Positions 1 to 5,211 of a stretch of DNA of 5,211 bases are shown piece by piece. A program made the translations under genes and the position numbers. The stretch lies in IMG/VR virus record IMGVR_UViG_3300029518_000136. One strand, written 5' to 3'. The notes beneath the pieces were generated by a model. The model was given only the letters and a program-made list of their open reading frames with translations, was not told where the DNA came from and did no database searches. Every line of letters starts with the position of its first letter. The first letter of the stretch is position 1. Source of the stretch: a virus (taxonomy: Duplodnaviria > Heunggongvirae > Uroviricota > Caudoviricetes).

Positions 1-640
1 TGTTGATGACCACGAACTGGTGCGCGCAGGGATACGACGCATTCTGGAAGATATAAAGGGTATAAAAGTCGTCGGTGAGGCATCGTGCGGTGAAGACGCC
101 GTTAAGTGGTGCCGGACAAATGCCGTTGACGTGGTGCTAATGGACATGAGTATGCCGGGCATTGGCGGTCTTGAGGCGACGCGTAAAATCGCGCGTTCCA
201 CAGCTGATGTCAAAATCATCATGCTTACCGTCCATACAGAAAACCCTTTACCAGCGAAAGTCATGCAGGCCGGTGCTGCTGGCTACCTCAGCAAAGGCGC
301 GGCTCCGCAGGAAGTCGTGAGTGCGATCCGTTCTGTCTATTCAGGGCAGCGTTACATTGCTTCTGACATCGCTCAACAAATGGCGTTAAGCCAGATCGAA
401 CCAGAAAAAACAGAAAGCCCATTTGCCAGTTTGTCTGAACGTGAATTGCAGATTATGCTGATGATCACCAAGGGCCAGAAGGTCAATGAGATCTCAGAAC
501 AGCTCAATCTCAGTCCGAAAACGGTGAACAGCTACCGCTATCGTATGTTCAGTAAACTAAACATTCATGGCGATGTTGAGCTGACTCACCTGGCAATTCG
601 CCATGGTCTGTGTAATGCGGAGACATTATCAAGTCAGTGA
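1..640 (+). CDS. uvrY: Response regulator UvrY (BarA/UvrY two-component system, NarL/FixJ family); 5'-partial, about 6 N-terminal codons lie upstream of the window
   Basis: Frame starting at nt 2 translates [20 protein letters not shown]..., so the tool's GTG start at 20 is internal. Receiver-domain motif [14 protein letters not shown] and a C-terminal LuxR/FixJ-type HTH ([42 protein letters not shown]). Stop TGA at 638-640 overlaps the uvrC GTG start (GTGA). Protein matches my recollection of E. coli UvrY. Confidence 0.93.
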
Positions 641-2469
641 GTGATCAGTTTGACGCAAAAGCGTTTTTAAAAACCGTAACCAGCCAGCCAGGCGTTTATC
701 GCATGTACGATGCTGGTGGTACGGTTATCTATGTCGGCAAAGCGAAAGACCTGAAAAAACGGCTTTCCAGCTATTTCCGTAGCAACCTCGCTTCGCGCAA
801 AACCGAAGCGCTGGTCGCCCAGATCCAGCAAATTGATGTAACGGTTACTCATACAGAAACCGAAGCGCTGTTGCTGGAACACAACTACATCAAACTCTAT
901 CAGCCGCGTTACAACGTTTTGCTACGCGATGATAAATCTTATCCCTTTATCTTCCTGAGTGGCGATACCCATCCGCGTCTGGCGATGCATCGTGGTGCGA
1001 AGCATGCTAAAGGTGAATATTTCGGCCCGTTCCCGAATGGCTATGCCGTACGTGAAACACTGGCGCTACTGCAAAAGATTTTCCCCATTCGCCAGTGCGA
1101 AAATAGTGTTTATCGCAATCGCTCGCGTCCGTGTCTGCAATATCAGATAGGGCGCTGTCTGGGACCGTGCGTTGAAGGACTGGTGAGTGAAGAAGAATAC
1201 GCTCAGCAGGTCGAGTATGTGCGCCTGTTTTTGTCTGGCAAAGATGATCAGGTGCTTACGCAACTCATTAGCCGTATGGAAACTGCCAGCCAGAATCTGG
1301 AGTTTGAAGAAGCGGCACGTATTCGCGACCAAATTCAGGCGGTGCGACGCGTCACCGAAAAACAGTTTGTGTCCAATACCGGCGACGACCTCGACGTTAT
1401 TGGTGTGGCGTTCGATGCGGGAATGGCTTGTGTCCATGTATTGTTCATTCGTCAGGGCAAAGTGCTCGGCAGCCGCAGCTATTTCCCGAAAGTGCCTGGC
1501 GGTACGGAACTGAGCGAGGTGGTAGAAACCTTCGTAGGTCAGTTCTATTTACAAGGCAGCCAGATGCGCACCTTACCGGGTGAGATCCTGCTCGATTTTA
1601 ATCTTAGCGATAAAACGCTGCTCGCCGATTCCCTTTCAGAACTGGCGGGACGCAAGATTAATGTTCAAACCAAACCTCGCGGCGATCGGGCGCGTTATCT
1701 GAAACTCGCGCGCACCAATGCGGCGACGGCCTTAACCAGCAAACTTTCGCAGCAATCTACCGTTCACCAGCGACTGACCGCGCTTGCCAGCGTGTTGAAA
1801 TTGCCGGAAGTGAAGCGGATGGAGTGCTTTGACATCAGCCATACCATGGGTGAACAAACCGTCGCTTCCTGTGTGGTGTTTGATGCTAACGGCCCGCTGC
1901 GTGCGGAGTATCGGCGCTATAACATTACTGGCATCACGCCGGGCGATGATTATGCGGCGATGAATCAGGTGCTGCGTCGGCGTTATGGTAAAGCCATTGA
2001 CGACAGTAAGATCCCGGATGTGATCCTTATCGACGGCGGCAAAGGCCAGCTTGCGCAGGCGAAAAATGTCTTCGCCGAACTGGATGTCTCATGGGATAAA
2101 AATCATCCGCTGCTTCTTGGCGTTGCCAAAGGAGCAGATCGTAAGGCTGGGCTGGAAACGCTGTTCTTTGAGCCGGAAGGTGAGGGATTTATTTTGCCGC
2201 CAGATTCTCCCGCGCTGCATGTTATCCAGCATATTCGCGATGAATCACACGATCACGCGATTGGCGGGCACCGTAAGAAACGGGCGAAGGTCAAAAATAC
2301 CAGTTCCCTGGAAACCATTGAAGGCGTCGGGCCAAAACGTCGGCAAATGTTGTTGAAATATATGGGCGGTTTGCAAGGTTTACGTAACGCCAGCGTTGAG
2401 GAAATTGCAAAAGTGCCGGGTATTTCGCAAGGTCTGGCAGAAAAGATCTTCTGGTCGTTGAAACATTGA
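637..2469 (+). CDS. uvrC: Excinuclease ABC subunit C (UvrC), 610 aa, GTG start
   Basis: N-terminal GIY-YIG nuclease signature ([24 protein letters not shown] ... YNV), central UvrBC-interaction region, C-terminal helix-hairpin-helix ([40 protein letters not shown]). Length and N-terminus [14 protein letters not shown] match E. coli UvrC as I recall it. 4-nt overlap with the uvrY stop. Confidence 0.95.
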
Positions 2470-2525
2470 TGTCTCTGTAGCAACATAGGGGTAATCTTAC
2501 TGACAACAGATAGTTACCCGTCATT

Positions 2526-3074
2526 ATGCAATTTAATATCCCTACGTTGCTTACACTGTTCCGTGTCATCCTTATCCCATTCTTTGTATTGGTCTTTTAT
2601 CTGCCTGTCACCTGGTCGCCGTTTGCCGCCGCGCTCATTTTCTGCGTCGCGGCGGTGACTGACTGGTTCGATGGTTTTCTGGCACGCCGCTGGAACCAGA
2701 GTACCCGGTTTGGTGCTTTCCTTGACCCTGTGGCAGATAAAGTTCTCGTGGCTATCGCCATGGTGCTGGTAACCGAGCATTATCACAGCTGGTGGGTGAC
2801 CTTACCGGCAGCAACGATGATCGCCCGTGAAATTATTATTTCTGCGCTACGTGAATGGATGGCGGAGTTGGGTAAACGCAGTAGCGTGGCTGTCTCCTGG
2901 ATTGGGAAAGTGAAAACCACTGCCCAGATGGTGGCGTTGGCCTGGCTGCTGTGGCGTCCGAACATTTGGGTTGAGTACGCCGGTATTGCACTTTTCTTTG
3001 TGGCTGCGGTACTGACTCTGTGGTCAATGTTGCAATATTTGAGCGCTGCGCGTGCAGATTTGCTTGATCAGTGA
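2526..3074 (+). CDS. pgsA: CDP-diacylglycerol--glycerol-3-phosphate 3-phosphatidyltransferase (phosphatidylglycerophosphate synthase), 182 aa
   Basis: CDP-alcohol phosphatidyltransferase motif D-G-x2-A-R ... G-x3-D-x3-D ([27 protein letters not shown]), multiple hydrophobic transmembrane segments, length 182 aa. Conserved gene order uvrC-pgsA-tRNA operon. Confidence 0.94.
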
Positions 3075-3124
3075 TCGTTTCGGCGCAATTTTCAGCAAAC
3101 GATCAAAAGTGGTGAAAAATATCG

Positions 3125-3152
3125 TTGACTCATCGCGCCAGGTAAGTAGAAT
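3125..3152 (+). promoter_or_regulatory. Putative sigma70 promoter of the glyW-cysT-leuZ tRNA operon (-35 TTGACT 3125-3130, 16-nt spacer, -10 TAGAAT 3147-3152)
   Basis: Near-consensus hexamers with 16-nt spacing about 75 nt upstream of the tRNA-Gly 5' end; A-rich stretch just upstream (3105-3120) resembling an UP element; GC-containing segment directly downstream of the -10. Sequence-only prediction. Confidence 0.45.
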
Positions 3153-3225
3153 GCAACGCATCGAACGGCGGCACTGATTGCCAGACGATAATAAAATCAA
3201 GTGATTAACTGATTGCTTGATGAAT

Positions 3226-3301
<76 letters not shown>

Positions 3302-3355
3302 GTTTAAAAGACATCGGCGTCAAGCGGATGTCTGGCTGAAAGGCCTGAAGAATTT

Positions 3356-3429
3356 GGCGCGTTAACAAAGCGGTTATGTAGCGGATTGCAAATCCGTCTA
3401 GTCCGGTTCGACTCCGGAACGCGCCTCCA
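3356..3429 (+). tRNA. cysT: tRNA-Cys (anticodon GCA), 74 nt
   Basis: GGCGCGTTAACAAAGCGGTTATGTAGCGGATTGCAAATCCGTCTAGTCCGGTTCGACTCCGGAACGCGCCTCCA: acceptor stem GGCGCGT/ACGCGCC, anticodon loop with GCA, T-loop TTCGACT, encoded CCA. Confidence 0.95.
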
Positions 3430-3441
3430 CTTTCTTCCCGA

Positions 3442-3528
3442 GCCCGGATGGTGGAATCGGTAGACACAAGGGATTTAAAATCCCTCGGCGTTCGCGCTGT
3501 GTGGGTTCAAGTCCCACTCCGGGTACCA
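3442..3528 (+). tRNA. leuZ: tRNA-Leu (anticodon UAA), 87 nt, long variable arm
   Basis: GCCCGGATGGTGGAATCGGTAGACACAAGGGATTTAAAATCCC...GGGTTCAAGTCCC...CCGGGTACCA: anticodon stem-loop GGGAT-TTTAAAA-ATCCC with TAA anticodon, class II variable arm, T-loop TTCAAGT, encoded CCA. T-stem here reads GTGGG/CCCAC. Confidence 0.92.
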
Positions 3529-3567
3529 TGGGAAAGAATAGAATAATCAAAGCAATAAGCAGTGTCG

Positions 3568-3599
3568 TGAAACCACCTACGGGTGGTTTTTTTGTTTTT
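3568..3599 (+). terminator. Rho-independent terminator downstream of the tRNA operon
   Basis: 8-bp stem AAACCACC (3570-3577) / GGTGGTTT (3582-3589) closing a UACG (UNCG-type) tetraloop, followed by TTTTGTTTTTG. Confidence 0.65.
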
Positions 3600-3618
3600 G
3601 TGCTTCATGTTCACCATT

Positions 3619-3641
3619 GTTTCGCCATTCAGTTTCGCCAT
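3619..3641. repeat. Tandem direct repeat GTTTCGCCAT x2 (3619-3628 and 3632-3641) in the att-int spacer
   Basis: Two identical 10-mers with 13-bp periodicity read directly from the sequence, lying between the tRNA-operon terminator and the int 3' end. Candidate arm-type recombinase binding sites. Confidence 0.3.
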
Positions 3642-3664
3642 AAAAAGAGGGCATTACTGCCCTC
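3641..3664 (-). terminator. Hairpin with T-tract on the - strand at the int stop codon (putative int terminator)
   Basis: Perfect 7-bp inverted repeat GAGGGCA (3647-3653) / TGCCCTC (3658-3664) with a 4-nt loop containing the int stop codon; on the - strand it is followed by TTTTTA (plus-strand A-run 3642-3646). Confidence 0.4.
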
Positions 3665-4664
3665 CAACGACCGGAACAACTGAAATTCTTCGATTATATC
3701 TCGCTGTTTGTGAGGCGTTTTTATGACCTGAAATTTCTTGTTTCTCACTCAGCGTACCTTCAAGATCCGAAATTCCTTTAGCTTTTAGATCATGGAAAGT
3801 GAACTGGAAATCGAGGTCTGGATATTTCTCAGAAGCAAGTTTTTTAGTCTTCATCCATTGCGCATTAAAAGCATCGCGCGTGTATCGCAGACCTGATGGC
3901 TGGTGGATGACAAAAATACTTACCATCCCGCTGTTAAGATGAATGCTGTCAGCAAGATTAACGGCATCCTCCAGACGTTTTGTCCAGGCCTTGATCTGGC
4001 TAACTGCGGTTTTACTCTGCTGGATTAAAATTCCTTCGCTCAATAATTGACTCTTTTTTAGGTCAAGAATGTCTCCCTGGCGGGCACAACATAGATATGC
4101 CAACTCCATTGCAACTTTTACGGGAATAGAAGCAACGCTATAAAGTGCATCATATTCCCTGTCGCTAATATAACGGGTCCGAGCCTGCTCTTTAAATTGC
4201 TTCACTCCATGGCAAGGATTCATCTTCACCTTTCCTCGTTCGTATGCCCACCGAAACACCCTGGACATAAATGCTTTCTCGCGGTTAGCCTGAACTCTGC
4301 TCTTAACTCCTCGTTTATCCATATATTTTCTGATGTGCTCGGGCTTGATGTTATCCGGCTTCATTTTCCCGAAGACAACATTTACCTTTGAACCGTATTT
4401 TCTGTAGTCTTTACGTGTTTCAGTTGCTAACTCGTGGAAATCGCCGGAATTAAAGAACTCTTCACAAAGTGCGTTGAAGTTAGTACCAACCCTTAAATCG
4501 TTTATGAAGTTTTCGTAAGCTGCCCATACCTGCGATTTTGTTAGATCAGGATTGCACAACCTGACGGTACGACCATCTGTTGTACGAAACTCATAAGCAG
4601 ATTTTCCCCGACGAACGCGGGGAGGCATCCAGTTATCATCGGGGTTTTTGCGAGCTCTAGACAT
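3654..4664 (-). CDS. int: Phage-type tyrosine recombinase/integrase (lambda Int family), 336 aa
   Basis: N-terminal arm-binding-like region (NWMPPRVRRGKSAYEFRTTDGRTVRL, compare the lambda Int N-terminus pattern). Catalytic core aligns to lambda Int: box I Arg in ARQGDILDL, Lys in QQSKT, box II FTFHDLK (His present, Arg position is Lys), second His in SGHK, nucleophile Tyr in TARYNR. Position adjacent to a tRNA 3' end. Confidence 0.9.
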   Translation of the reverse strand: MSRARKNPDDNWMPPRVRRGKSAYEFRTTDGRTVRLCNPDLTKSQVWAAYENFINDLRVGTNFNALCEEFFNSGDFHELATETRKDYRKYGSKVNVVFGKMKPDNIKPEHIRKYMDKRGVKSRVQANREKAFMSRVFRWAYERGKVKMNPCHGVKQFKEQARTRYISDREYDALYSVASIPVKVAMELAYLCCARQGDILDLKKSQLLSEGILIQQSKTAVSQIKAWTKRLEDAVNLADSIHLNSGMVSIFVIHQPSGLRYTRDAFNAQWMKTKKLASEKYPDLDFQFTFHDLKAKGISDLEGTLSEKQEISGHKNASQTARYNRRISVVPVVGGQ

Positions 4665-4891
4665 TACATATCCTTAAAGTTTGGTTCTTCTTCCTCTGGA
4701 TTACTCACTATCAACTTAAGGCCAACCGGGTTTGATACATGATCCCATGTTGTTCCTGGTCTGCCGTCCTTACGTGGGATAAAAAATACCCCACTATCCC
4801 TCAGAGCTTTACACTGGAGGGAAGGGCGACGATAACCAGTTAATTGATAGAGGTCATCTGGAGTAAGAAAACGTTGGATTTGTCCGCTCAT
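4664..4891 (-). CDS. xis: Excisionase-like small DNA-binding protein (Xis), 75 aa
   Basis: Small ORF directly upstream of int, overlapping it by 1 nt (TAATG). Pattern YRRPSLQCKALRDSGVFFIPRKDGRPGTTW resembles the lambda Xis winged-helix region (RRPRSL...R...IFPPPVKDGREYLF). GGAG Shine-Dalgarno 8 nt upstream of the ATG. Confidence 0.7.
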   Translation of the reverse strand: MSGQIQRFLTPDDLYQLTGYRRPSLQCKALRDSGVFFIPRKDGRPGTTWDHVSNPVGLKLIVSNPEEEEPNFKDM

Positions 4892-4924
4892 ACATAGTTC
4901 TCCACTTAAACCGGCTGCACCCGG

Positions 4925-5203
4925 TTACTTCATTCTGTAAGCACACGATGAACAACCGTGACGGGTTCCATCGTTGCAATTGCGACATAATGGACTTTCT
5001 TTCGAACTTTTCCCATTTAGCTGACGAAGTATCTCTACTGGCACCATTACCGGCATTGGTACACGAATCACCATGCTTCTGAGTTCAGCAATTTCGTTTG
5101 CCTGTTCGAACACTCGCGCCTTACAGTATTCAGCTTCAGATTTCCACCATGCCACATCCGCTTTGAGGCGACGCCCACGCCGCTGCTTGAGTTTACTGGG
5201 CAT
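4925..5203 (-). CDS. Hypothetical small Cys-rich phage protein (C-x2-C-x7-C-x2-C zinc-ribbon-like C-terminus); possibly 5'-extended beyond the window
   Basis: 92-aa ORF upstream of xis with a basic N-terminus (KLKQRRGRRLK) and C-terminal CRNCNDGTRHGCSSC. The reading frame stays open to the window edge, so the true start may lie beyond 5211. Occupies the position that small ea-type ORFs occupy upstream of xis in lambdoid phages. Confidence 0.5.
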   Translation of the reverse strand: MPSKLKQRRGRRLKADVAWWKSEAEYCKARVFEQANEIAELRSMVIRVPMPVMVPVEILRQLNGKSSKESPLCRNCNDGTRHGCSSCAYRMK

Positions 5204-5211
5204 GAATATTC

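Follow-up and report, generated by a model that had tools for sequence, protein, structure and literature searches.

The window, by which we mean the whole 5,211-nt stretch of DNA that was analysed, consists over its left 3.5 kb of E. coli-type chromosome and, from there on, of prophage DNA. The chromosomal part holds uvrY, uvrC and pgsA together with a tRNA cluster that includes the integration target, leuZ, and the prophage part holds an integrase gene (int), an excisionase gene (xis) and a further early-left gene, all on the minus strand:

20-640: uvrY, chromosomal part
637-2469: uvrC, chromosomal part
2526-3074: pgsA, chromosomal part
3226-3301: tRNA-Gly(gcc), tRNA cluster
3356-3429: tRNA-Cys(gca), tRNA cluster
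3442-3528, plus strand: tRNA-Leu(taa), leuZ, the integration target (ARAGORN and junction analysis)
3472-3535, plus strand: attL core identity block, 64 bp identical to the attP of phage mEp390
3654-4664 including the stop codon, minus strand: int, a 336-aa lambda-type (heterobivalent) tyrosine integrase (ORF, Pfam, PHROG, AlphaFold2/Foldseek)
4664-4891, minus strand: xis, a 75-aa DUF4224 excisionase (Pfam PF13986, E=3.6e-14; PHROG phrog_1266, E=1.5e-29)
4925-5203, minus strand: 92-aa prophage early-left ORF (PHROG phrog_14816, function unknown, E=1.6e-34)

The int product matched Pfam PF00589 (Phage_integrase) over residues 176-325 at 36.7 bits (cut-off 27.1), PF22022 (Phage_int_M) at 30.8 bits (cut-off 27) and the PHROG integrase family phrog_1 (E=2.8e-47). 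Against NCBIfam it gave sub-threshold Xer matches only and no specific family name. The last base of xis, position 4664, is shared with the start codon of int, and the xis-int arrangement is common to phages mEp390, ST64B, F10 and Fostie. The early-left 92-aa gene is also present in the related loci L003 to L008; its product carries four cysteines near the C terminus and matched phrog_14816 only, with no hit in Pfam or NCBIfam.

Chromosome gives way to prophage at 3472/3473, on the 5' edge of the anticodon loop of tRNA-Leu (whose TAA anticodon occupies 3476-3478). The identity block at 3472-3535 runs from the anticodon stem-loop through the tRNA's 3' end plus 7 nt, and the 3' part of leuZ, from 3473 on, is supplied by the phage. 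Across the prophage part of the window (3473-5211, 1739 bases) we found no mismatches to the E. coli assemblies L003, L004, L005, L007 and L008, and a single mismatch to L006. Positions 1-3472, on the other hand, carried 32 to 34 mismatches (~0.9%) relative to L003, L004, L006 and L007, with mismatch sets that differed between L003 and L004; at this chromosomal rate of divergence, ~16 mismatches would be expected in the 1739 prophage bases. Because the mismatch count switches exactly at the tRNA-Leu anticodon stem-loop, where the identity to mEp390 attP starts, this pattern indicates that the allele probably integrated recently and in a site-specific manner. Homologous transfer of the region, rather than integration, could in principle have spread identical phage DNA among these strains, but the abruptness of the boundary at the att core speaks against it. 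Taken together, these features are what is expected of an integrase that targets a tRNA gene, rebuilds the 3' half of the tRNA and has inserted the same phage into several backgrounds. At least three diverged backgrounds carry the phage at leuZ, which marks the att junction to the base.

Other loci extend this picture beyond the window, which ends before the completeness of its own prophage can be judged. Collinear E. coli assemblies with an identical Int contain an adjoining lambdoid early region, comprising a CI-like S24 repressor, Cro, a CII-like protein and replication genes. E. coli 2017C-4173W12 has what appears to be a complete prophage of ~43 kb, headed by a 97%-identical int and lying between leuZ and yecA; it carries terminase, portal, capsid, tail, lysis and gtrABC genes and is bounded by an imperfect attL/attR repeat of ~125 bp. 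In L005 the phage segment is joined, at the equivalent of window base 3473, to a wholly different flank, a defence island (11011-21011, junction near 11204) that encodes a dCMP deaminase, Mrr, PDDEXK_4 and a type I restriction-modification system. ARAGORN detected no tRNA elsewhere in this 21-kb locus, finding only the prophage's own tRNA-Arg, and the arrangement is explained by either a tandem island at leuZ or integration at a secondary site. The region is present in 5 of 5426 complete E. coli genomes, and Citrobacter portucalensis A60 (L016) has a 98%-identical integrase. This close Citrobacter relative, together with the rarity of the region in complete E. coli genomes, suggests that the phage moves between Citrobacter and Escherichia.

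Several further features of these prophages were observed along the way. A 13-bp tandem repeat, with a unit of about GAAACTGAATGGC, lies at window positions ~3620-3645, just downstream of the int stop codon, and occurs in two copies in the window and three in L005 (~11030-11060); placed in the P' arm, it could be a candidate arm-type or accessory-protein site. The early region of related prophages carries a tRNA-Arg(tct) gene between the repressor and ParB-like genes (L003, 4638-4713; L009, 42114-42190). Relatives of this prophage also carry gtrABC serotype-conversion genes: gtrA, gtrB and a glucosyltransferase gene (O-antigen serotype conversion) adjoin attR in a related complete prophage (L009, 7094-9790), and the gtr genes have been kept alongside int and xis in an IS1-truncated remnant in strain MB20 (L001, 3605-5542).

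The int gene itself departs from the tyrosine recombinase norm at one catalytic position. Read on the minus strand, bases 3797-3780 encode F290 (3797-3795, ttc), H291 (3794-3792, cat), D292 (gat), L293 (cta), K294 (3785-3783, aaa) and A295 (3782-3780, gct), in agreement with the original prediction that box II reads H-D-L-K with the lysine codon AAA at 3783-3785. The active-site codons, assigned by alignment to lambda Int, are the following:

4080-4082, minus strand: Arg195, Arg I (lambda R212), invariant in both the Lys-type and the Arg-type groups described below
4071-4073, minus strand: Asp198 (lambda D215)
4011-4013, minus strand: Lys218, the general-acid lysine on the beta hairpin (lambda K235)
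3792-3794, minus strand: His291, His II (lambda H308)
3783-3785, minus strand: Lys294, codon AAA, Arg II position (lambda R311, Cre R292), from base-by-base reading and HMMER alignment
3723-3725, minus strand: His314, His III (lambda H333)
3696-3698, minus strand: Tyr323, the nucleophile (lambda Y342)

When Int was compared by HMMER with all PDB sequences, lambda integrase was the sole family matched (E=2e-7). At box II, TFHDLKA of Int pairs with TFHELRS of lambda, which places H291 on H308 and K294 on R311. At box I, ARQGD pairs with GQRVGD (R195 with R212, D198 with D215), QQSKT pairs with EQSKT (K218 with K235), and SGHK...ARY pairs with LGHK...SQY (full segments SGHKNASQTARY and LGHKSDTMASQY), aligning H314 with H333 and Y323 with Y342. 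The catalytic positions had earlier been said to align with lambda Int in a reliable register, and every one of those pairings proved correct against the solved lambda Int chains.

An AlphaFold2 model of Int, built with 59 homologues, had a mean pLDDT of 86.8, with values of 90-97 over the active-site segments (blocks 171-200 and 271-310). In the model, H291 directly precedes a helix that starts at residue 292 and holds K294, K218 sits between strands 211-215 and 222-226, and residues 17-57 form an N-terminal three-stranded sheet plus helix. The best Foldseek matches were to full-length lambda Int (1z1b and 1z1g; E=3.7e-13, TM 0.65), and the TM score normalised to the target reached 0.73 against the lambda Int fragment 75-356. 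The model is consistent with a three-domain architecture, in which a predicted arm-binding N terminus is followed by core-binding and catalytic domains. By sequence and by fold alike, the HxxK helix aligns without gaps to the HxxR helix of lambda. Given the HMMER pairing of the catalytic positions, the AlphaFold2 model and the Foldseek matches to lambda Int, we regard the register as secure. By its fold, motifs, gene arrangement and tRNA targeting, Int is a lambda-type heterobivalent phage integrase.

Int has Arg I with an acidic residue three positions on (R195, D198), a cationic residue at the Arg II position after His II (H291-D-L-K294) and a tyrosine nucleophile near the C terminus (Y323, at least 90% conserved across the Lys-type and Arg-type groups). 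What it lacks is the strict arginine of the box II H-x-x-R motif, which is Lys294 here. That this arginine is near-invariant, as the original prediction held, is borne out by a tabulation of more than 12,000 tyrosine recombinase PSI-BLAST hits, in which Arg II was 99.1% Arg and 0.5% Lys (Gibb et al. 2010, PMC2943603). Int therefore departs at Arg II from the strict "R-H-R-Y" signature, but that signature is statistical (99.1%) rather than absolute, and a lysine at this position is no bar to membership in the superfamily.

A lysine at Arg II could be peculiar to this copy or fixed in a lineage, and homologue alignments favoured the second. All 120 of the closest database homologues (cluster representatives, 62-98% identity) read HDLK, and their hosts include Escherichia, Citrobacter, Yersinia, Hafnia, Pectobacterium, Dickeya, Serratia, Pantoea, Erwinia, Xenorhabdus, Klebsiella and others. 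Searching 1.84 billion 50%-identity representatives exhaustively with HMMER yielded 3506 relatives, and in the best 150 of these (to ~31% identity) the Arg II column held Lys in 108 and Arg in 26. We then assembled 128 near-full-length sequences, consisting of 122 50%-cluster representatives drawn from the best 150 of the 3506 relatives and six phage integrases; 99 had Lys, 28 had Arg and one had Gly. In a neighbor-joining tree rooted on HK022 Int, a crude tree without support values, 98 of the 99 Lys forms fell into one contiguous block and the Arg forms made up a basal grade, a topology that points to one old R-to-K change that was probably retained thereafter. The Lys clade has the motif F-H-D-[LI]-K-A-K-[GS]-[IV]-[ST]-D. 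Since its Arg-type sisters share the rest of this motif (HD[LI]R-AK), the Arg II column is homologous between the two groups. Judged from these alignments, the lysine is no mutation of this copy: a large clade of phage integrases from gammaproteobacteria has it as its conserved state.

Two sequences in the tree stood apart. P0186 belongs to the Lys clade, carries Gly at Arg II and Lys in place of His III, and is possibly a degenerate copy; P0262, a Lys-type sequence, falls among the Arg-type sequences and could represent a second, independent R-to-K change. We also scanned contigs with the peptide pattern HD[LI]KAK[GS][IV][ST], a search that is circular with respect to Lys fixation and was used for taxonomic breadth and codon usage only. 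It returned 305 loci. The 80 that were listed were mostly from Enterobacterales, with others from Celerinatantimonas, Photobacterium, Shewanella, Aeromonas and Alteromonas and one assembly labelled Pseudomonas lundensis.

The same lysine is found in isolated phages. H-D-[LI]-K is present in the integrases of mEp390 (86.6% identical to Int), Fostie (65.5%), Pectobacterium phage ZF40 (58%), Salmonella phage ST64B (45%), Stenotrophomonas phage BUCT708 (45%) and Escherichia phage Evi (41.5%), and the record of ZF40 gives its source as "induced lysogen." Arg-type integrases are those of Pseudomonas phages F10 and LESphi2, Burkholderia phage KS5 and HK022. For ST64B, excision has been quantified by attP qPCR, and a second integrase, IntA, has been implicated in its reintegration (PMC12455584). 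Because IntA may also take part in both excision and reintegration, the excision of ST64B is support for activity of the Lys-type Int rather than clean proof of it.

The int gene shows the marks of a maintained gene. Estimates of dN/dS were 0.063 against E. coli 2017C-4173W12 and 0.071 against Citrobacter portucalensis, the two close relatives for which the ratio is usable, dS being saturated below ~90% identity. The reading frame was intact at 336 codons in all nine loci compared. Across 92 Lys-type DNA loci the lysine was encoded by AAA in 53 and by AAG in 39; with both codons in use, the amino acid has been held while the codon drifted. The gene is under strong purifying selection and is not decaying.

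We consider it very likely that int encodes a functional integrase of an mEp390-like lambdoid prophage, seated in leuZ of an E. coli-type chromosome, with Lys294 at the Arg II position. This reading draws on the identity and register of the residue, its fixation across a clade, purifying selection, its presence in isolated temperate phages and the identical phage DNA found at the att junction in diverged hosts. In tyrosine recombinases, Arg II makes a bidentate contact to the phosphate and the tyrosine oxygen. The active site of Int is R195/D198/K218/H291/K294/H314/Y323, and its reaction would take the usual course for lambda Int: an intasome would be assembled on attP through arm and core binding, Y323 would attack the scissile phosphate while K218 acts as general acid, and the transition state would be stabilised by R195 and residue 294. 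The sole departure would lie in Lys294, which we infer supplies the second cation by contacting a non-bridging oxygen of the scissile phosphate, with recombination presumably efficient. A Holliday junction would then form and be resolved, and excision would be directed by Xis.

Engineered enzymes make such a role plausible. Cre R292K recombines in vivo as well as in vitro (PMC2943603; PMC4499138), and the substitution has been described as "reasonably well tolerated," with the tyrosine nucleophile still used (PMC4499138). A modelled lysine was able to reach O1P, and vaccinia TopIB R223K retains ~10% activity (PMC2943603). Cre R292K also builds up covalent intermediate to the highest level among single active-site mutants, which was taken to reflect a ligation defect (PMC2943603), and a clade that keeps Lys must either tolerate this defect or compensate for it. 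The 0.5% Lys at Arg II in the 2010 tabulation (PMC2943603) means that natural Lys forms were already on record, and the Lys clade is probably a sizeable part of that fraction. A literature search of limited extent found no explicit description of natural HxxK integrases and, in the same literature, no biochemical test of any natural Lys-type integrase. The original prediction had raised the prospect of a lineage with genuinely different active-site chemistry. The lineage part of this stands, as the lysine is clade-wide; the chemistry part was overstated, given that Lys is a conservative cation, that the other catalytic residues are canonical and that Cre R292K recombines.

A variant of the preferred reading, compatible with it, is that the Lys enzymes are tuned: the balance between cleavage and ligation would be shifted, or the chemistry slowed, and the change offset or exploited through the second-shell residues Cys192 and Gly297, giving different kinetics or regulation. 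We compared 98 Lys-type with 28 Arg-type sequences and found several positions that track the K/R state. Cys192, three residues before Arg I, is Cys in 88% of Lys-type sequences and Thr in 26 of the 28 Arg-type sequences; Gly297, three residues after Lys294, is Gly in 81% of the former and Ala or Ser in the latter; Trp139 and Gly303 track the state as well. Positions 192 and 297 flank the two cationic catalytic residues in the primary sequence, as such tuning might lead one to expect, but the Lys forms are essentially one clade and the covariation may be phylogenetic inertia. Tuning is thus a possibility that we hold as tentative. More tentative by a shade is a specific version of it, in which the ancient Lys clade would owe its efficiency to coevolved Cys192, Gly297 and perhaps Arg230, these residues correcting or exploiting the ligation defect and long-lived covalent intermediate of engineered R-to-K mutants. 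[quoted passage not shown]

Alternatively, some other arginine might supply the Arg II function and leave Lys294 a bystander. A relocated Arg I function has reportedly been proposed for IntDOT, and two candidates emerged from our comparison: R143, which is Arg in 81% of Lys-type sequences and Trp in 18 of 28 Arg-type sequences, and R230, Arg in 85% and in 5 of 28, respectively, which lies just past the Lys218 hairpin in the AlphaFold2 model. Neither is invariant in the Lys clade, however, whereas K294 is conserved in 100% of it, and the arginines present in at least 90% of Lys-type sequences (R162, the invariant R195, and R325) are also the commonest residues in the Arg-type group and are hence not compensatory. 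Among the 98 Lys-type and 28 Arg-type sequences, we found no invariant arginine specific to the Lys clade that could replace Arg II. The gapless alignment of the HxxK helix to lambda HxxR and the sufficiency of Lys alone in Cre R292K weigh in the same direction, and a relocated catalytic arginine is accordingly unlikely.

The original prediction had also suggested a degenerate, inactive integrase in a cryptic prophage, int having been disabled by a single AGA-to-AAA lesion. The 99.1% frequency of Arg at this position across the superfamily lends this some appeal, as does the presence of the region in so few complete E. coli genomes, and in strain MB20, which has the closest copy in a complete E. 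coli genome, that copy is a remnant truncated by IS1. Such remnants of the phage type do exist, but their integrase has the same Lys as that of intact prophages. The idea is contradicted on several other counts: the fixation of Lys in the 120 close homologues and in 99 more distant ones, the use of both AAA and AAG, the low dN/dS with an intact frame in nine loci, the isolated temperate phages that have the same Lys, and the identical segment at leuZ in diverged hosts. Moreover, the Arg II codon of the Arg-type relative KS5 is CGG, not AGA. The comparative data speak decisively against a dead integrase, which we consider very improbable. A sequencing or assembly error at 3783-3785, for which nothing speaks except the rarity of Lys at this position, can be set aside as scarcely credible, because 109 indexed blocks of independent public assemblies contain exactly this 336-aa protein, the closest representatives uniformly read HDLK and the same AAA codon occurs in L003, L009 and L016. 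A mutation private to this genome was likewise considered and rejected, the same protein and codon being found in independent assemblies.

For annotation, it follows that a Lys at box II in this integrase family should not be taken as a pseudogene signal, and that a prophage whose integrase reads HD[LI]KAKG[IV]SD should be regarded as potentially mobile. In other respects the locus is ordinary, a typical tRNA-targeting lambdoid integration module with a rare, already tabulated active-site variant.

Among known systems, the closest named relative of Int is the integrase of mEp390 (JQ182729, gp27), which is 86.6% identical over 336 aa and shares the HDLKAKGISD motif and the xis-int arrangement. 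The annotated mEp390 attP has 64 bp identical to window positions 3472-3535, and the two phages therefore share the leuZ target. They differ in that mEp390, a lambdoid phage isolated in Mexico, has a different backbone, and the integrases have ~13% amino acid divergence; we found no integration biochemistry for mEp390 in the papers searched. Like Int, the integrases of ST64B (Sb28) and ZF40 (gp02) belong to the Lys clade (45% and 58% identity, respectively), and they come from inducible prophages, but these phages have other hosts and attachment sites, and a host-encoded IntA is reported to assist ST64B recombination.

The lambda and HK022 integrases (PDB 1z1b, 1z1g and 5j0n) share with Int the three-domain fold, an upstream xis gene, the QSKT and GHK...Y motifs and the same residue at six of seven catalytic positions. 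They are only ~16-28% identical to it in sequence, and R311 is replaced by Lys294. In addition, lambda uses its own type of Xis, whereas a DUF4224 excisionase is found here, and its attB lies between gal and bio rather than in a tRNA gene. The nearest parallels for the active site itself are the engineered Cre R292K, Flp R308K and vaccinia TopIB R223K, of which the Lys clade is the natural counterpart, with the same substitution at the same catalytic position. These mutants, however, were made in the laboratory and have reduced rates, and Cre R292K accumulates covalent intermediate. In the Lys clade, unlike in the engineered mutants, lysine is an evolved and conserved state with possibly coadapted neighbors in C192 and G297, and the clade could show what compensates for the lost bidentate contact of Arg II.
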